DNA of 32,000 nucleotides from Patescibacteria group bacterium (GCA_023480925.1 JAMCWY010000019.1:12268-44267), one strand, 5' to 3'. Numbered from the stretch's first letter, positions 24,680 through 31,586 are shown. The notes: generated from the sequence alone by a model not told the origin. Program-made: numbers and translations.

Positions 24680-26089
24680 TTAATCGTTTAACTCGCCGCT
24701 GTTTTCAACCCGATTGACTTCCTCGACTCGGGCTTTAAATTCGCCTTTATAAATTTTCGCTTTAATCTGATCGCCCGAGACGACTTGATCAATGTCTTTA
24801 ACGACCGCGCCAATCTGATTAATTATAATACTATAACCCAGTTTTAAATTACGACTCGGATTAAAACCGGCCAAGCGCGATCGGCTCAACTCCAACTCTT
24901 TGGTCAAGCGGTTGATTAATTTTTCAAATAAAATCGGCAGACGCGAACCGAACTCTTCGACCGCCTTTTCTTTTTTCGCCCGCATCGATTCAAACTGCCT
25001 GAGATTAAGAATAAATTGGTTGAAAACGTTTTTTGAGCGAAAACTAATTTGGTTTAACTGATTTAAAAGTCGAACGTTTGCCTGATCAAACTCGGCCTGG
25101 CTTGTCTGCAAACCAAACTCAAAAAGATGAGTAATGTTGGTTTCAAATCGGGGTAAGACTTCAATTAAATTTCGCCAAGAATCGTTTATGGCGATCGCGG
25201 CCGCGGTTGGCGTTGACGGAGCCAAGTCGGCAACCAAGTTGGCAATTGGCAGATCGCGCTCGTGGCCGATCCCAGCGATGGTCGGTATCTTTGAGCCAAA
25301 AATCGATCGGCAAACCAGTTCATGATTAAACGGCTGAAGATCTTCAAGACTGCCGCCGCCGCGAATTATAACCAAAACATTCAAACCCGGGCTGGTTTGA
25401 TTAAACCAATCGATCGCTTTAATAATATTGTCAACCGCTTGCCGGCCCTCAACCCGAACATCACGGAAAAAAATTTTATAACCGCGCCGGTCCAAGTTGC
25501 GGCGAAAATCATCGATAACCGCGCCGGTCTTCGACGTGATTAAACCAATCGTTTGGATAAACTCGGGCAGTGGCCGTTTCCGTTCGAACAAACCCTCAAG
25601 TTCCAGTTTTCGCTTAAGTAGATCATAAGCTTTTTTTAAGGCGCCCTCGCCGACCAATTCCAAACCTTCGACCAAAAAACTCAGCCGGCCCTTGGCTTTA
25701 TAAATCTCGGCCCGACCGCTTACCTTAATCGCCATGCCTTCAGCTAAGGTCAAACCAAGACTGCGATAAAGACCGGGGCGGATATAGCAGTTTAAAACCG
25801 CCGTTTCTTTTTGGTCCTTTAAAGCGAAATAAACGCCGGTTTGATGATGATTAAGTTCGGTAATCTCGCCCAATATAGAAACAATTTGAATCGCCAAAAC
25901 TTCGTTAAGTTGGTCGATAAAATCAGCGACGCCAAACAGACGCTCGGTTGAAATCGAAGATTCGGCCGAATCGAAACCGGCCAATCTTTTTTTCTTCTCG
26001 TCGTCGCTCAAAACCAACTTAAGGCGGCTTGATTGAAATAAATCACTCTCGGCGCCGCTATTTTTTCTTCGATTGATTCGCTTAGCCAT
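24680..26089 (-). CDS. xseA: exodeoxyribonuclease VII large subunit
   Basis: N-terminal OB fold (ILGEITELNHHQTGVYFALKD), then the catalytic region (IGLITSKTGAVIDDF...IIRGGGSLEDL...GIGHERD). Confidence 0.88.
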   Translation of the reverse strand: MAKRINRRKNSGAESDLFQSSRLKLVLSDDEKKKRLAGFDSAESSISTERLFGVADFIDQLNEVLAIQIVSILGEITELNHHQTGVYFALKDQKETAVLNCYIRPGLYRSLGLTLAEGMAIKVSGRAEIYKAKGRLSFLVEGLELVGEGALKKAYDLLKRKLELEGLFERKRPLPEFIQTIGLITSKTGAVIDDFRRNLDRRGYKIFFRDVRVEGRQAVDNIIKAIDWFNQTSPGLNVLVIIRGGGSLEDLQPFNHELVCRSIFGSKIPTIAGIGHERDLPIANLVADLAPSTPTAAAIAINDSWRNLIEVLPRFETNITHLFEFGLQTSQAEFDQANVRLLNQLNQISFRSKNVFNQFILNLRQFESMRAKKEKAVEEFGSRLPILFEKLINRLTKELELSRSRLAGFNPSRNLKLGYSIIINQIGAVVKDIDQVVSGDQIKAKIYKGEFKARVEEVNRVENSGELND

Positions 26090-26774
26090 TGGCTTCTTCC
26101 GGTTCAGATTGGCCTAATCGACTAAATAACTCGATCATCTCTTCTTTCGAATAAATATCGAAGTCGCGCAGCTCACCCAAATAATTTTGTTCATAAGTTT
26201 TTAAGTACTGGTTGACGTAATCCACGATCGCGTCGGTTCGGCTAAAATTTTTCTTAAAAAGATCGAAACCATATTGAAGCTCAAGCAGATGCGCCTGGCG
26301 AATGGCGAAAAGCCAAGCTGAACGTTCCGCCAATAAAACTTCTTCGTATTCTTTTTTAATCGCTTTTAACCTTGACTCCGGATAAATATTAGCCTTGTCC
26401 AATGCTCTCGATTTCTGATTAGCTTTTATCGCCGACCAGATGAATTCCGTCTCAGTCGAATCAACAACATGACCAATTTCGTGAAGGAGGTTGAACAAAT
26501 CCTTAATCTCGTCAAATCGCCCGACCAAAACTTCCGGTTTTTGACCATGATGATTAGGCATAACCGCTGACCAATCATTCTTCCGACTTAACCTAAATTT
26601 CGTTCCGGCCGGTACAAACCAGTTAAAATCGAGAACGATCAGATTATCCTTTTTGAAACCGATAAACAAATCGTCATTTTCTTTTCTTTTAATCGTCAAC
26701 TTTAAACCCTGACCCAACTCGATTGATTTTTCTTTTTTCAACCAACCCAATCCCTCTTTTAATTGATTGAACAT
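26082..26774 (-). CDS. hypothetical HExxH (HEIGH) putative metallopeptidase-like protein
   Basis: LLHEIGHVVD motif. The start is moved to the ATG at 26774 because TTGGCG-N17-TATAAT (the -10 at 26782-26787, minus) sits 7 nt upstream of it. The 3' end overlaps the xseA start by 8 nt. Confidence 0.55.
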   Translation of the reverse strand: MFNQLKEGLGWLKKEKSIELGQGLKLTIKRKENDDLFIGFKKDNLIVLDFNWFVPAGTKFRLSRKNDWSAVMPNHHGQKPEVLVGRFDEIKDLFNLLHEIGHVVDSTETEFIWSAIKANQKSRALDKANIYPESRLKAIKKEYEEVLLAERSAWLFAIRQAHLLELQYGFDLFKKNFSRTDAIVDYVNQYLKTYEQNYLGELRDFDIYSKEEMIELFSRLGQSEPEEANG

Positions 26775-26883
26775 TACTAATATTATAAAACTAGAAATAA
26801 AAACTCGCCAACTCGACAATCAGAACAGTTGATTTAAAACAACCATGAAAATAACTCGACCAAAAAGCAACGAGAGAACGAAT

Positions 26884-27552: not shown

Positions 27553-27626
27553 TGCGGGGTCGTCTAATGGTAGGACCGTGGACTCTGGATCCATGTATCT
27601 AGGTTCGAATCCTAGCCCCGCAGCCA
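27553..27626 (+). tRNA. tRNA-Gln (anticodon CUG), CCA encoded
   Basis: I folded it by hand. The acceptor is TGCGGGG/CCCCGCA (U1-A72) with discriminator G73 and CCA. The D stem is GTCT/GGAC. The anticodon stem is GTGGA/TCCAT with loop CT-CTG-GA. The T arm is CTAGG-TTCGAAT-CCTAG. Total length is 74 nt. Confidence 0.93.
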
Positions 27627-27637
27627 AATTTGACGCA

Positions 27638-27839
27638 ACAAACTTTTGACATTATTTTGCCGAATTTAATCCACAAATCTAAGAAACGAGACCTTACCTG
27701 ATAGTTGCCCGCCGCCTGCGGCGGCGGGTAGGAAAACCCGTCGGCTCTCGCGGGCAAAAATTTTTCCCCTCAAACTCCCCCAATTTTTGGCCGCGAGACA
27801 ACCACAAAAGATTTACAAAATCAGTGAGATAGTGTATAA
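27638..27839. repeat. left copy of the 202-bp inverted repeat (IR-L)
   Basis: It matches the reverse complement of 30423-30624 at 194/202 positions with no gaps (hand alignment). Confidence 0.95.
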
Positions 27840-27845: not shown

Positions 27846-28238
27846 TCAGTACATTCAAATTCCAAACGAAAAGAGAAGAGGTGTAACTGTGTTTATTTAT
27901 ATCGGTGGCGTACCCGGGAACAGATGCTTACGATAACGCTCATTGTCGCGACCCCCATACCATCTGCGTCGCCGTCTCAAAGACGCGGACGATCGGCATG
28001 ACCGTAAGCGTAATATTGATTTTCTGATTCACGAACAGAAAATAGAAGTCAATATTGCCGTTTCTCAAGCCGCAGAACTCGGCATTCCTCTTTGCTGCGT
28101 GAGTAATAAGGGTGGCGAGAATCCGATAGCTTCGGAAGTACTTTTCTCTTTCTGTGTCCACCAAGCGCTATGCCGCAAAATACTGCGGCGCATCTTTCCC
28201 TGACCCACCGTACATTTCCCTACGGTGGGTTTTTATTT
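27846..28238 (+). ncRNA. candidate structured non-coding transcript (~390 nt), family unknown
   Basis: It is bounded by the IR-L promoter and a strong intrinsic terminator, and it is locally GC-enriched. It contains several helices, including 27926-27932/28003-28009, a 15-bp bulged hairpin at 28012-28056, and 28172-28189. The only ORFs are TTG-initiated, lack an RBS and mutually overlap. Confidence 0.45.
28203..28238 (+). terminator. rho-independent terminator (plus-strand orientation)
   Basis: ACCCACCGTA (28203-28212), an 8-nt loop, then TACGGTGGGT (28221-28230), followed by TTTTTATTT. On the minus strand no T-run follows the stem. Confidence 0.8.
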
Positions 28239-28781
28239 GAATACGCAATTTTCTTTAGTAATACCGTGGTTTTTTTTATAATCTTCCCATAGACCAAGGT
28301 ATGCCCTGGTAATCCTTGGCCGATCTAAAAGATTAAATTCGTTGAGATACCGATCTATTGTTTTCGGTTCACCCTCAAACTCAACAAAAAAACCGAAAGG
28401 TAATTTGTCAAATGAGATAGCAATATCATTTTTGAAAACATTTTTTCGTTTTTTCTCAAAAATAATTTCTTTGCTAAAACCCAAAGACCTCAATATCTCC
28501 CTCAAATTTTCAATATTTTCACCCTCTTTCATTTTTATCTCCAGTTCTTCTCGCTCAAAAAACTGGGCGTTTTCTCTTGTTTTTCTTTTCACAGTTAAAA
28601 TAATCTCTTTTTTCTCTCCTTCTACATATTTAATTCTTGGGAAAATGCCATCTTTGATGTTTGAAAAATCCTCTTTGAAATAGCCAAAGGTTCTTTCCAG
28701 GTGGAAATTATCAAAACCATCGGTAAAACGGCTAAATTCTTCAGGCGTTAATTCAATTTTTACTTCTATTTCTTTTTTCAT
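28233..28781 (-). CDS. CYTH-domain protein (triphosphate tunnel metalloenzyme; CyaB/ThTPase-like)
   Basis: N-terminal ExExK motif (EIEVKIE), plus further acidic strand motifs (REELEIK, FVEFEGE). It is 182 aa. It overlaps the upstream gene by 29 nt. Confidence 0.7.
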   Translation of the reverse strand: MKKEIEVKIELTPEEFSRFTDGFDNFHLERTFGYFKEDFSNIKDGIFPRIKYVEGEKKEIILTVKRKTRENAQFFEREELEIKMKEGENIENLREILRSLGFSKEIIFEKKRKNVFKNDIAISFDKLPFGFFVEFEGEPKTIDRYLNEFNLLDRPRITRAYLGLWEDYKKNHGITKENCVFK

Positions 28782-29664
28782 ATTTTTCTTCTTTTTCGTG
28801 GTCGTAATACGTTGGATATTTTTCAGACATTGGGAATCTGTATTTTGTTTGGTCTTTCACTCCCGCTTCTTTATATCCCCTCCGTCGGTCCCAACAAGTG
28901 GGACAATCGCCGCATTCGATATCAAATGATTTAACACAGGTTCTTGCTTTGTGCAGGGGTATTCCGTTTTCGAAAGACCATTTTATAAAAACATCTTTAT
29001 CAAAATAATTTCCAAACTCCGTTTCTATGGGGAGTGATATAAACTGCCAAGACCAATCGTTCAGTATTTGACAAAATAATATGTTCATTAACCTAACCCA
29101 AGTTTGAGAACAGTGATAGGAAAAATCCGAACTCATATTAGAGGCGAATACTGTTTTTGTTTCAACCCCCAGTGCTTTTAAAGAATAGCCGTACTCCATT
29201 CCGGTTAAAAATACTATTGGTCCTCTTGCCGGATAAGATATGTTATGACTTAACGGAATATCATCCATTATTCTTTTTGTTTTTCTCAATAAATCCTTGT
29301 ATTCCATCCCCGGCGTCATAATAGTTATCTCTTTATAATTGTGATAAAGTTTTGGGAATTTTCTCTTGTAAAATCGGTCAAAATAATCTACTGACTTCTT
29401 CTCATATTTGTAGTTTGACTGGCCCCTGTTTATGAAAAATGGATAAACATTCAAACTAAATTCTTTTAACAGTATTTCTATATTGGCAACGGAATCTTGG
29501 CCGCCAGACAAACAAGCAACAACGCTATCACCCCCTTTTGGCATTTTAACAACATACCCTCTTTTACTTTTCAGGATACCATCATATATCTTGAGTAGAG
29601 TAATATCCTCATTCTCTTTATTTTCGAATTTTACTTCTCCTTGTTTATTCAGTATTTTGGTCAT
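28753..29664 (-). CDS. QueC-like PP-loop ATPase (7-cyano-7-deazaguanine synthase family)
   Basis: PP-loop ACLSGGQDS and a C-terminal Cys cluster C-x7-C-x2-C-x2-C (CVKSFDIECGDCPTC), followed by RRRGYKEAGVKDQTKY, as in QueC. It has a roughly 45-aa N-terminal extension. Confidence 0.72.
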   Translation of the reverse strand: MTKILNKQGEVKFENKENEDITLLKIYDGILKSKRGYVVKMPKGGDSVVACLSGGQDSVANIEILLKEFSLNVYPFFINRGQSNYKYEKKSVDYFDRFYKRKFPKLYHNYKEITIMTPGMEYKDLLRKTKRIMDDIPLSHNISYPARGPIVFLTGMEYGYSLKALGVETKTVFASNMSSDFSYHCSQTWVRLMNILFCQILNDWSWQFISLPIETEFGNYFDKDVFIKWSFENGIPLHKARTCVKSFDIECGDCPTCWDRRRGYKEAGVKDQTKYRFPMSEKYPTYYDHEKEEKYEKRNRSKN

Positions 29665-30388
29665 AGTGCTTGTATGATTTGATTATTTCTTTTGCTTCCC
29701 CAACGGTTTCTTGATAAATATGTGCATCAGTTATAAAACCATCCAATGGCCCAACCCAAACATTGGTGTTCAATTTTTCTTTTAATCGTTCTACTACTTC
29801 CTTGGACAAAAGAGAGATTGCGACAAAATTTCCTCCAGCTTTTTGATACGCATCTATCGATCTTGCGTTAAATAATGTATTCATGTGATACCCCCTTTCC
29901 CCATTCATTTTAATAAGTCGGAATTGGACAGTTGTAATGCAGGGCAAATAATCATCTTTGGGCCTATCCAAAACTCTTTGATAATCCTCGTGTCTTATAA
30001 AACTCATAATTGCTTTTTTGGATTCTGGAATTTCGGCTAATCTCGCAACCACAAAATCTAACATTCCCCAATCTTTTATTCTTGCATAATAACTTTTACT
30101 ACCGGGACTAAACGAAGGCACGACATCAAAATCGTGCATTATATCCTTGGTGAATGTGAGTTCTATTATCTGGTCTATGTTTTTTTTATCCCCATACTTT
30201 TCAATAAGAACATCGGGGAGAGATTGCGTTGCTGATTTCATACGGATATTCTGCAGACTAACTCTTTTTCTCCCATCATCTTCAGTGAGCACTCCATTTT
30301 TAATAATCGCTTCAACTAAGCTCAACCAGACGCTTCCTATTGTTTCACCGAAAATGTTATAACCGAATGGTTCTAGTTTGACATACAT
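29645..30388 (-). CDS. thymidylate synthase (ThyA) fold enzyme, archaeal-like short form
   Basis: It carries LPCITTVQF (catalytic Cys with Q at +5), ARSID followed by N at D+8 (GGNFVAISLL), and TDAHIY (D-x-H-x-Y). These match the ThyA active-site layout. Confidence 0.72.
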   Translation of the reverse strand: MYVKLEPFGYNIFGETIGSVWLSLVEAIIKNGVLTEDDGRKRVSLQNIRMKSATQSLPDVLIEKYGDKKNIDQIIELTFTKDIMHDFDVVPSFSPGSKSYYARIKDWGMLDFVVARLAEIPESKKAIMSFIRHEDYQRVLDRPKDDYLPCITTVQFRLIKMNGERGYHMNTLFNARSIDAYQKAGGNFVAISLLSKEVVERLKEKLNTNVWVGPLDGFITDAHIYQETVGEAKEIIKSYKHYDQNTE

Positions 30389-30421
30389 AAGTTTAAATTA
30401 TTCACAAAAACGATGGTTTAA

Positions 30422-30450
30422 ATTATACACTATCTCACTGATTTTGTAAA
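30422..30450 (-). promoter_or_regulatory. inward-facing promoter TTTACA-N17-TATAAT at the inner end of IR-R, driving the ThyA-like/QueC-like/CYTH operon
   Basis: On the minus strand the -35 is at 30445-30450 and the -10 at 30422-30427, with a 17-nt spacer. The ATG at 30388 implies a leader of about 27 nt with no Shine-Dalgarno sequence. Confidence 0.65.
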
Positions 30451-30624
30451 TCTTTTGTGTTTATCTCGCGGCCAAAAATTGGGGGAGTTTGAGGGGGAAA
30501 ATTTTTGCCCGCGAGAGCCGACGGGTTTTCCTACCCGCCGCCGCAGGCGGCGGGCAACTATCAGGTAAGGTTTCGTTTCTTAGATTTGTGGATTAGGTTT
30601 GGTAAAATAATGTCAAAAGTTTGT
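30423..30624. repeat. right copy of the 202-bp inverted repeat (IR-R)
   Basis: Reverse complement of IR-L, with 8 substitutions and no indels. Confidence 0.95.
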
Positions 30625-30625
30625 G

Positions 30626-30647
30626 GGTGTTCTAATTCCGCAGCCAA
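30626..30647 (+). repeat. degenerate copy of the tRNA-Gln T-arm/3' acceptor end (putative att remnant)
   Basis: GGTGTTCTAATTCCGCAGCCAA compares with the tRNA's AGGTTCGAATCC[TAGCC]CCGCAGCCAA. The exact 10-mer CCGCAGCCAA occurs at 27618-27627 and 30638-30647 in the same orientation. Confidence 0.5.
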
Positions 30648-30907
30648 GCTGTAAAGTTTCTGTTTCCCGCCCGAGCGAAAATTATCAAAAGTCAGTGTCC
30701 GGATTTCCTTTGAAAAAAGTTCGGATTTTGTTCAGGAAGGACAGCCAATTTAGTTTGTAAAGTTTGGTGTGTTTGTTAGAGAAATACCAAAAAAAGTCAA
30801 ATTCCTGCCCATGATCAGTACAAATTGCGGTTGCGGCCAAGACGTACTGCTGTCACGATACGTTAAAAAAGAGACCGCAGTCAAACGGAAAAACTTAAAA
30901 TAATATT

Positions 30908-30916
30908 TGTTATAAT
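30908..30916 (+). promoter_or_regulatory. extended -10 promoter TGTTATAAT for tmk
   Basis: TG at 30908-30909 and TATAAT at 30911-30916. The leader carries AAGGAGG (30938-30944) 9 nt before the ATG. Confidence 0.5.
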
Positions 30917-30953
30917 ATTATTGGCATTTTATTATTTAAGGAGGAAAGAAAAA

Positions 30954-31586
30954 ATGGGTTTATTCATCGTGTTTGAAGGAGTCGACGGTTCAGGCAAGAC
31001 GCAGCAGAGCCGACTACTGAGCGACCATCTCAAAAGAAAGGGGTATAAGGTTCTTTTAACCAAAGAACCGGGCGGCGACGATTCAATCTCTTATATGATC
31101 AGATTGATCTTGCTTAACCCCGACCATAAAAACAAAATAGCGACCAAAACCGAGCTGATGCTTTTCGAAGCTGACCGAGCTCAGCATATTGATCGTACCA
31201 TCATGCCTGCTCTTAGAAACGACGAGATCGTCATATCCGACCGGTTTGACGCCGCCACTTACGCTTATCAAGTTTACGCGAGAAATGTTTGTTCCGCTGA
31301 AGAATTCTTTCACTTGAATGAATTCGTAACAAACGCTTTGTCGCCGGATTTTACTTTCTGGCTCGATTTGGACCCAACTATCGGCTTAAAACGCAACGCT
31401 AACGCCGGGAAAAAAGATCGATTCGAACTCGAAGGGATTGAATTCCACCGAAACGTTCGAGAAGGATATATAGAATATTTTCAAAATATCCCGGAGGAAA
31501 AGTACGCCAAGATCACCACCAATCGGCCGATTAAAAAAATCCACGAAGAAATTCTTCAGATTTTGGATAAAAAATTCAAAATCTAA
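30954..31586 (+). CDS. tmk: thymidylate kinase
   Basis: MGLFIVFEGVDGSGKTQQ P-loop, LTKEPGG, and a DRF/D-R motif region. The start is set at the ATG behind a strong SD rather than the track's upstream TTG. Confidence 0.88.
   Translation: MGLFIVFEGVDGSGKTQQSRLLSDHLKRKGYKVLLTKEPGGDDSISYMIRLILLNPDHKNKIATKTELMLFEADRAQHIDRTIMPALRNDEIVISDRFDAATYAYQVYARNVCSAEEFFHLNEFVTNALSPDFTFWLDLDPTIGLKRNANAGKKDRFELEGIEFHRNVREGYIEYFQNIPEEKYAKITTNRPIKKIHEEILQILDKKFKI

Follow-up and report, generated by a model that had tools for sequence, protein, structure and literature searches.

A 32,000-nucleotide (nt) stretch from a Patescibacteria group bacterium (GCA_023480925.1 JAMCWY010000019.1:12268-44267; below, the window, with positions counted from its first letter) carries an operon of three genes that encode a protein of the thymidylate synthase (ThyA) fold, a QueC-like PP-loop protein and a CYTH protein. 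This operon is one copy of a conserved, mobile and apparently undescribed cassette, whose carriers are ultra-small bacteria, archaea and one phage-like contig. Judging from the protein families involved, the cassette is defined by function: a nucleoside triphosphate (NTP) would be cleaved to the monophosphate (NMP), modified in two steps and returned to the di- or triphosphate (NDP/NTP). In our estimation there is an even chance that the route leads from dUTP through dUMP to a C5-modified, QueC-processed dUMP and on to a deoxynucleoside triphosphate (dNTP) for DNA, a product other than plain dTMP being the likelier outcome.

The three-gene operon

The genome that contains the window (G000) comprises 507 kb in 23 contigs and is 94% complete. 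The public runs listed as containing the stretch are DNA runs from one mine-tailings study, with no RNA run among them, and named homologues are labelled Nealsonbacteria, Paceibacterota and similar. The operon consists of the following elements:

29645-30388, minus strand: ThyA-like gene, 247 aa, intact open reading frame (ORF)
28753-29664, minus strand: QueC-like gene, 303 aa, intact ORF
28233-28781, minus strand: CYTH gene, 182 aa, intact ORF
30422-30450, minus strand: sigma-70-like promoter TTTACA-17-TATAAT, 11 of 12 consensus positions

A sequence-only reading of this DNA had described three minus-strand ORFs that overlap by 20 and 29 nt and are served by a single near-consensus promoter. 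The coordinates confirm the overlaps, and both the -35 and the -10 box of the promoter are kept in the upstream regions of relatives. The start codons of all three ORFs agree with the conserved N-termini of their homologues, and the ratio of nonsynonymous to synonymous substitution rates (dN/dS) against the closest relatives is 0.05-0.13 in each gene. The three genes are working and under strong purifying selection; chance ORFs are ruled out. The family calls made in the same reading are correct, with weak scores: 30.2 bits for PF00303 (Thymidylat_synt) over the C-terminal half of the ThyA-like protein only, 36.7 bits for PF06508 on the QueC-like protein, and 21.9 bits for PF01928 on the CYTH protein, just short of the 23.2-bit cut-off. 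All three proteins score far under the equivalog cut-offs, so the plainer possibility of an ordinary ThyA, an ordinary QueC and a housekeeping CYTH protein does not describe them.

A cassette of interchangeable parts

Comparison with 31 independent loci from other assemblies, in which ORFs were typed by phmmer and Pfam, shows that in 29 of them the QueC-like gene is immediately preceded by the ThyA-like gene, often with overlapping start and stop codons. The two exceptions are a locus cut by a contig end (L019) and a rearranged one (L024). Given this pairing, chance juxtaposition of the genes is ruled out for practical purposes, which settles by neighbourhood comparison the concern, raised in the sequence-only reading, that the trio might be coincidental. 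All-against-all clustering of the flanking ORFs of the 31 loci revealed no further recurrent neighbour. The pairing also reaches distant compact relatives of the ThyA-like protein. The gene order is NDK, Ham1, ThyA, QueC around P0256 and Ham1, ThyA, QueC around P0270, where the partner is a full-length homologue of the window QueC-like protein (hhalign probability 99.9); in P0297, ThyA is followed by a QueC-like N-terminus.

The position of the pyrophosphatase is filled in several ways. A CYTH gene is present in 21 of the 31 loci and a Ham1/ITPase gene in six, with none within the flank in four. Ham1 is fused to the QueC-like protein in L008, L022 (L022:4949-6424) and P0081, and P0243 is a fusion of a ThyA-like and a NUDIX domain. 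A QueC-like/Ham1 fusion is also listed for P0074. The kinase position is similarly variable: an AAA_17 kinase of ~200 aa, whose best named relative is archaeal adenylate kinase, is encoded in 14 loci, and Tmk/dNK-like kinases, at variable positions within the operon, in nine; L034 and L051 additionally encode NDK. The Tmk/dNK-type kinases point to thymidylate-like deoxynucleotides. Since the same places are taken by three unrelated pyrophosphatase families and by two or more unrelated families of kinase, we define the cassette by the functions predicted for its slots and not by particular families.

The CYTH protein is the presumed occupant of the NTP pyrophosphatase slot in the window. Its orthologues in L005 and L016 reach 43.5 and 38.7 bits on PF01928, and the CyaB model gives the window protein 23.7 bits against a cut-off of 57.95. 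The N-terminal ExExK motif and the tunnel Arg, Lys and Glu residues are conserved (E4, E6, K8, R49, K65, R77, E79, E109, K110, R112, D125, E134 and E136 are invariant or nearly so), and the protein matches the solved triphosphate tunnel metalloenzyme Saci_0718 (E = 5.5e-5).

We found no description in the literature searched that joins a QueC-like protein, a ThyA-like protein and CYTH or Ham1, in line with the sequence-only reading, which knew of no described pathway with this trio. As a separate observation, the Uhrbacteria locus L034:554-7419 holds a same-strand cluster of Ham1, a second QueC paralogue, Ham1, NDK, a TPR protein, Ham1, a kinase, and the ThyA-like, QueC-like and CYTH-like genes. 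The second QueC paralogue is found in L033 as well, and these paralogues, with 33-48 bits on TIGR00364, are non-canonical QueC proteins too.

The ThyA-like protein keeps the catalytic core and lacks the folate-binding elements of ThyA

Exhaustive profile searches and NCBIfam comparison place the ThyA-like protein in a separate clade of a compact (~205-250 aa) TIGR03283-like superfamily. It scores 37.8 bits on TIGR03283 against a cut-off of 174.55, and 27.3 bits on NF002495 against 327, again missing the equivalog cut-off; TIGR03284 has no match in G000. A direct phmmer search against the PDB retrieved no thymidylate synthase, and a profile search reached only E = 0.008. The AlphaFold2 model (pLDDT 93.2) nevertheless has the ThyA fold. 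Its closest structural neighbour is the flavin-dependent dCMP hydroxylase AfhB (Z = 21.7, root mean square deviation [rmsd] 2.9 over 207 residues), followed by the CMP hydroxymethylase MilA (Z = 19.6). Classical ThyA and the T4 dCMP hydroxymethylase have Z values of about 17, with a VIA Z of 17.4 to ThyA chains and an rmsd of 2.5-3.1 over 195-204 residues.

In alignment with Escherichia coli ThyA and T4 gp42, at an identity of 15-19% that makes single positions approximate, the residues of the catalytic core are readily matched. C150, R176, S177, D179, N187, H223 and Y225 are invariant in 56 sequences and correspond to E. coli C146, R166, S167, D169, N177, H207 and Y209. Tyr100 (E. coli Y94) is also retained, and R126/R127 of E. 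coli ThyA are replaced by K124/K125. The folate-binding elements are, by this alignment, missing. There is no conserved Glu at the approximate position of E58; the folate loop IWDEW (I79-W80-x-x-W83) is absent, and an invariant MxDxDxxPSF loop stands in its place; L172 and F176 correspond to Q182 and G186; and the C-terminal lid is lacking, as the protein ends after helix K.

Asn at position 177 has been associated with a uracil substrate and Asp with cytosine, an acidic residue at L143 or close to it accompanies non-methyl products, and D169N marks the flavin-dependent 5-hydroxy-dCMP synthases (PMC13326640). The ThyA-like protein has the Asn of uracil enzymes, and acidic residues (D145/D146) adjoin the equivalent of L143. 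Thus, it differs from T4 gp42, which has the Asp and keeps the folate loop. It also differs from the flavin-dependent 5-hydroxy-dCMP synthases, given that D179 is kept and the D169N signature is not found. A flavin-dependent C5 hydroxylase of the AfhB type, for all that AfhB is the best structural match, is therefore possible and not favoured.

The best full-length relatives are the TIGR03283 proteins, with which the window clade shares its compact size and the elements W21, SY..R, PESK, PC, RSxD, K183 and AHIY. The clade is set apart from them by its own invariant MxDxDxxPSF loop, K125 and Q182, and by its pairing with a QueC-like gene, whereas P0296 (L056:2821-4230), a true TIGR03283 member at 194 bits, is fused to a pterin-binding DUF4346/MtrA-like domain. 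The latter fusion suggests that the compact ThyA core depends on a partner for its co-substrate. Other compact ThyA proteins have partners of different kinds: P0292 is a fusion with an S-adenosylmethionine (SAM) methyltransferase, and the ThyA-like proteins encoded at L053:3278-5123 and L055:508-2711 are accompanied by Ham1 and a HAD-type phosphatase, or by an FGE-sulfatase-like partner, with no QueC-like protein. The compact core looks like a module that is joined to various partners.

A QueC-family protein that is not QueC

The QueC-like protein shares with QueC, Cap9 and QatC (PF06508) the fold, the SGGxDS PP-loop, the Arg of the VPxRN motif and a C(x)7-8CxxCxxC zinc site. Its AlphaFold2 model (pLDDT 93.9) and profile have their best matches in QueC (3bl5, 2pg3) and Cap9 (9nto), with Foldseek template modelling scores of 0.69-0.76 normalised to the target. 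The PP-loop (S53-G-G-x-D57-S58) and the Zn-Cys4 site (C243/C251/C254/C257, with a first spacer of 7 residues) are invariant, and the VPxRN Arg is retained in the form YPxRN. In E. coli QueC, the YxQxHxxE and YPDC motifs are essential (PMC13329287). The window protein has R80-G-Q82-(x)5-E88 and S-D180-x-S-Y-H184-C/S in their places. It is also about 90 residues longer than QueC, with an N-terminal extension of ~45 aa that includes the invariant E19/D20. The TIGR00364 (QueC) score is 17.4 bits against a cut-off of 150.3.

Searches of the 94%-complete genome yielded neither QueD (PF01242) nor FolE (PF01227), and QueE was not searched for; the description of this QueC homologue as an orphan in the sequence-only reading thus holds for the two families covered. 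Given the low equivalog score, the absence of the substrate motifs and the lack of detected QueD and FolE, the protein is, as far as sequence can tell, not a genuine QueC. A 2026 survey of PF06508 has no cluster tied to ThyA, CYTH, Ham1 or kinases.

These features bear on a simpler explanation, namely that the QueC-like protein acts on 7-deazaguanine, processing salvaged 7-carboxy-7-deazaguanine (CDG) or preQ0 for tRNA-guanine transglycosylase (TGT), or conjugates bases to proteins in the manner of Cap9 and QatC, its neighbours being only loosely related. TGT is indeed present in G000, Cap9 is the top sequence match among solved structures (E = 1.4e-9), and the PP-loop, the YPxRN motif and the zinc site are all retained. 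However, no CDG-producing gene was found among those searched for, the substrate motifs of QueC are replaced, and neither Cap10 or a CD-NTase nor QatABD accompanies the protein in the window. The strict pairing with a ThyA-like protein, a pyrophosphatase and a kinase over distant lineages, along with the Ham1 fusions, would be left unexplained. We consider this explanation very improbable. A further candidate role, that of a U-to-C aminase in place of a missing CTP synthase, was rejected, PyrG being present. A predicted complex of the ThyA-like and QueC-like proteins scored 0.00, which gives no verdict and weighs neither way.

A lost kinase and an adjacent tmk

Two further features of the window belong to the kinase slot:

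27889-28188, plus strand: remnant of a dedicated NMP kinase (AAA_17/archaeal adenylate-kinase-like), found by tblastn with intact kinases
30921-31586, plus strand: tmk (dTMP kinase), divergent from the operon, 168 bits on TIGR00041

The remnant, which the sequence-only reading overlooked, lies between tRNA-Gln and the CYTH gene and is convergent with the operon. The tblastn queries were the intact kinases of L010, L019, L027, L008 and L021. A stop comes after codons 1-10 (27889-27918), and next are codons ~121-202 (27943-28188), which are 78% identical to the intact L010 protein, so that ~110 codons, including that of the Walker A lysine, are deleted. The same short remnant is present in the closest relative, L009. 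Furthermore, independent Logan contigs of two runs are identical across it, which argues against an artefact in the assembly of this metagenome-assembled genome (MAG).

The tmk gene is the sole PF02223 match in the genome and is likely to stand in for the lost dedicated kinase. Divergent Tmk/dNK-like kinases are located at the same position in L014 and L015. The proposal in the sequence-only reading that the adjacent tmk is the kinase of the system accordingly holds in part: the gene is the only tmk available, but its adjacency is not conserved in L009.

Distribution, mobility and a possible role in defence

The QueC-like profile matches 5 of 401 evenly sampled Patescibacteria genomes, which belong to different families. 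Identity to the window copy does not track taxonomy labels: two Uhrbacteria-labelled copies are 80% and 45% identical to it, and two archaeal copies labelled DPANN show 58% and 49% protein identity. A comparison with XseA identity as a measure of horizontal transfer failed, XseA having been found in only one of four carrier genomes. The GC content of the cassette is 0.35-0.37 (0.35-0.38 over positions 28001-31000), compared with roughly 0.39-0.46 in the adjoining intervals. Broken copies are present in L013, L024, L027, L030, L036 and G125 (G125:C3:3847-4985). Split or truncated genes and in-frame stops are seen in MAG copies, L022 among them, and may reflect either the decay of an accessory module or assembly errors.

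One IMG/VR contig, L037, encodes the full trio on one strand amid genes for a phage-type exonuclease, NinB/Orf, phrog_98, a DNA methyltransferase and an endolysin-like peptidase. In isolated phages, tblastn gave distant matches only (25% identity to a Pootjesviridae 5-hydroxy-dCMP-type enzyme and 23% to Dp-1 QueC), and PHROGs contains no match for the adenylate-kinase-like, Ham1 or CYTH members.

The patchy spread, which is consistent with horizontal transfer, the frequent decay and the low GC content would suit an antiviral or antagonistic module that forms a toxic or chain-terminating analogue or remodels the dNTP pool, in the way of prokaryotic viperins and their neighbouring kinases, with the QueC-like protein at the analogue-forming step. 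QueC-family proteins act in CBASS type IV and Qat, and the cassette of L008 is immediately followed by a HEPN/nucleotidyltransferase pair. Yet PADLOC leaves the ThyA-like and CYTH proteins unmatched and recognises the QueC-like protein only by a generic QueC model. Neither the window nor the 31 loci encode a CD-NTase, Cap10 or QatA/B/D, and the QatC model (NF041925) yields 17.2 bits against 280. The contexts consist mostly of housekeeping genes and not of defence islands, and the sole viral copy is located in a replication/recombination module, which fits the DNA metabolism of the phage itself. An anti-phage role, one of two hypotheses advanced from the sequence alone, has gained no positive evidence, and we regard it as improbable.

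A proposed route to a modified pyrimidine nucleotide

Phage T4 modifies cytosine before replication by means of the dCTPase/dUTPase gp56, the dCMP hydroxymethylase gp42 and the dNMP kinase gp1, and other phages have analogous routes to 5-hydroxymethyl-dUMP and 5-hydroxy-dCMP. The cassette resembles such T4/SPO1-type routes in combining an NTP pyrophosphatase, a ThyA-fold Cys enzyme that would act at C5 and a dNMP kinase, as the slot census over the 31 loci indicates, and in the location of one copy within a phage replication/recombination module. It differs from them in the obligatory QueC-like, ATP-dependent enzyme and in that most carriers are cells. This slot logic was the other hypothesis of the sequence-only reading. 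Comparative genomics bears out the layout of pyrophosphatase, ThyA-fold protein, kinase and QueC-like protein; the modified product does not follow from it, given that the slots of the ordinary conversion of dUTP to dTTP are identical.

Gene content, conservation, catalytic residues, mobility and selection are observed; the order of substrates, the specificity for deoxynucleotides, the nature of the product and its entry into DNA we infer. A pathway on free deoxyuridine nucleotides is favoured by the layout of the slots, by kinases of the deoxynucleotide type, by the uracil-specific core and by the phage context. In the first step, the CYTH protein (elsewhere Ham1 or NUDIX) would release the monophosphate from a (d)NTP, dUTP being the likeliest. 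Cys150 of the ThyA-like protein would then attack C6 of the uracil, and a one-carbon or similar substituent would be placed on C5, with a co-substrate presumably bound otherwise than folate is in ThyA. Third, the QueC-like protein would spend ATP to adenylate an oxygen function of the intermediate or of an incoming acid and exchange it for nitrogen, such that QueC-type chemistry would be shifted from C7 of 7-deazaguanine to C5 of a pyrimidine. Finally, a dNMP kinase (in this genome, where the dedicated kinase is deleted, probably tmk) and NDK would produce the triphosphate for DNA synthesis.

One candidate chemistry, as yet unproven, is that a carboxyl or acyl group is put on C5 and turned into an amide or nitrile by the QueC-like protein; alternatively, an activated oxygen of the ring or of a side chain could be aminated. 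There is an analogy, and only an analogy, in LarB and LarE: LarB carboxylates a mononucleotide at a ring carbon, after which a PP-loop enzyme related to QueC adenylates the carboxylate and exchanges its oxygen for another atom. The ring (a pyridinium) and the enzymes are different in that case, and there is no homology to LarB, so carboxylation by the ThyA-like enzyme is speculation. That the product is something beyond plain dTMP is made likelier by the obligatory ATP-dependent QueC-like partner and by the accessory, mobile distribution of the cassette. The logic of pre-replicative modification is known. What would be new is the compact ThyA clade, the recruitment of the QueC family to pyrimidine nucleotides, the pattern of displacement among CYTH, Ham1, NUDIX and the kinases, and the mainly cellular carriers in the Candidate Phyla Radiation (CPR) and DPANN.

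Four points weigh against this proposal. Ordinary dTTP synthesis, by Dut, ThyA, Tmk and Ndk, has exactly these four slots, and in this genome the cassette may just supply thymidylate. The dedicated kinase of the window copy is deleted. L037 is the only contig with the cassette among 2.9 million viral contigs, and most copies are in cellular contexts. The loss of the folate loop is, judging from the alignments, common to the whole compact, methanogen-type superfamily, of which one genuine member carries a pterin domain, and it is thus no proof of non-pterin chemistry.

Nucleotide metabolism and the thymidylate alternative

The first of these points can be developed into a full alternative, a non-canonical route from dUTP to dTTP in which CYTH or Ham1 serves as the dUTPase and the compact ThyA-like protein as the synthase, with Tmk and NDK completing the conversion. 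The QueC-like protein would then serve as an accessory subunit, providing the one-carbon donor or activating it, in place of the pterin-binding domain of methanogen-type enzymes. Apart from the exact correspondence of the slots, this alternative draws on the nucleotide metabolism of the host. G000 encodes ribonucleotide reductase (RNR), serine hydroxymethyltransferase (SHMT), PyrG and Tmk, and searches of this 94%-complete genome found no ThyX, canonical ThyA, dihydrofolate reductase (DHFR), trimeric dUTPase (PF00692), dCMP/cytidine deaminase or thymidine kinase (TK). In G000, no route that leads from dUTP to a thymidylate-like nucleotide was detected apart from the cassette, and the cassette-free genomes G161 and G311 of the same order have canonical ThyA. 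The nearest sequence family is the methanogen-type TIGR03283, and Asn187 and Tyr100 are kept.

Against it, the score of the ThyA-like protein is far under the TIGR03283 cut-off, and the obligatory pairing with a QueC-like protein has no counterpart among known thymidylate synthases; we know of none that requires an ATP-dependent PP-loop partner. The absence of a synthase from G000 is not unusual, since about a fifth of the 401 sampled Patescibacteria have neither ThyX nor canonical ThyA. Moreover, the four other sampled carriers already possess one of the two enzymes (ThyX in three, canonical ThyA in one), near the background of 162 of 401 genomes for ThyX and 156 of 401 for canonical ThyA over the cut-off, the latter count including the unpublished genome G154. 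There is no visible complementarity of the cassette with ThyA or ThyX among the five carriers, which are too few for a test. The cassette is also rare, patchy, often decayed and found on a phage-like contig. On balance, we view a plain thymidylate route as rather unlikely, although it is the main competitor of the modified-nucleotide pathway.

Should the product be plain dTMP, the cassette would constitute a third, ATP-dependent thymidylate route and help to explain the supply in genomes that have neither ThyA nor ThyX. If a new base is made, the few pre-replicative DNA modifications would be joined by one of a new chemistry, with a PP-loop amidoligase that uses a pyrimidine nucleotide as substrate, the QueC family would gain a function missing from its latest survey, and cells, not only phages, would carry such a pathway. 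The boldest form of the modified-nucleotide pathway, which we think unlikely, is that a new replacement for thymidine in DNA is made in CPR, in DPANN and in one or more of their phages, for example a 5-carboxamido- or 5-cyano-deoxyuridine nucleotide, with C5 coupled to an electrophile through the QueC-like partner and not through folate. A modified base would bear on the protection or marking of DNA in ultra-small symbionts and on the behaviour of their DNA in sequencing and restriction.

A repeated element with promoters for both convergent units

The promoter of the operon is supplied by a repeated element, the second feature that the sequence-only reading overlooked:

30420-30650, minus strand: repeat copy A, ~205-230 nt, hairpins and palindromes followed by the operon promoter
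27638-27839, plus strand: repeat copy B, with promoter TTTACA-17-TATAAA facing the kinase remnant
28202-28231, no strand assigned: GC-rich hairpin between the two convergent transcription units, found in a terminator scan

The two copies are 96% identical and inverted, one before each of the convergent units, and supply the promoters of both. Upstream of the -35 box, the element contains a GC hairpin of 10-12 bp and a 16-bp A/T-rich palindrome with a C-rich loop. The RNA of copy A folds at -49.6 kcal/mol (z = -4.2), and L009, L011, L013 and L027 keep parts of the element ahead of their ThyA-like genes. It has no Rfam match. A DNA operator, a small RNA or leader RNA, and the end of a mobile element are candidates for what it may be. 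Partial copies are located elsewhere in the genome, at G000:C6:164-248 and G000:C16:5450-5511, and Logan contigs break at the element. The hairpin at 28202-28231 is terminator-like on the plus strand, where it comes right after the kinase remnant, and lies just past the CYTH stop codon.

The cassette is bordered on one side by tRNA-Gln(CTG) at 27553-27626, which was the only hit of Rfam searches at both gathering and permissive thresholds; no riboswitch was detected upstream. Farther out, a 245-aa ORF at 26082-26819 on the minus strand, between xseA and a gene for an HDIG-domain protein, belongs to no family in Pfam or NCBIfam. Logan contigs of run X1 show ~10% nucleotide divergence over 29412-29903, the junction of the ThyA-like and QueC-like genes, and thus reveal a second related strain with the cassette in the same sample.

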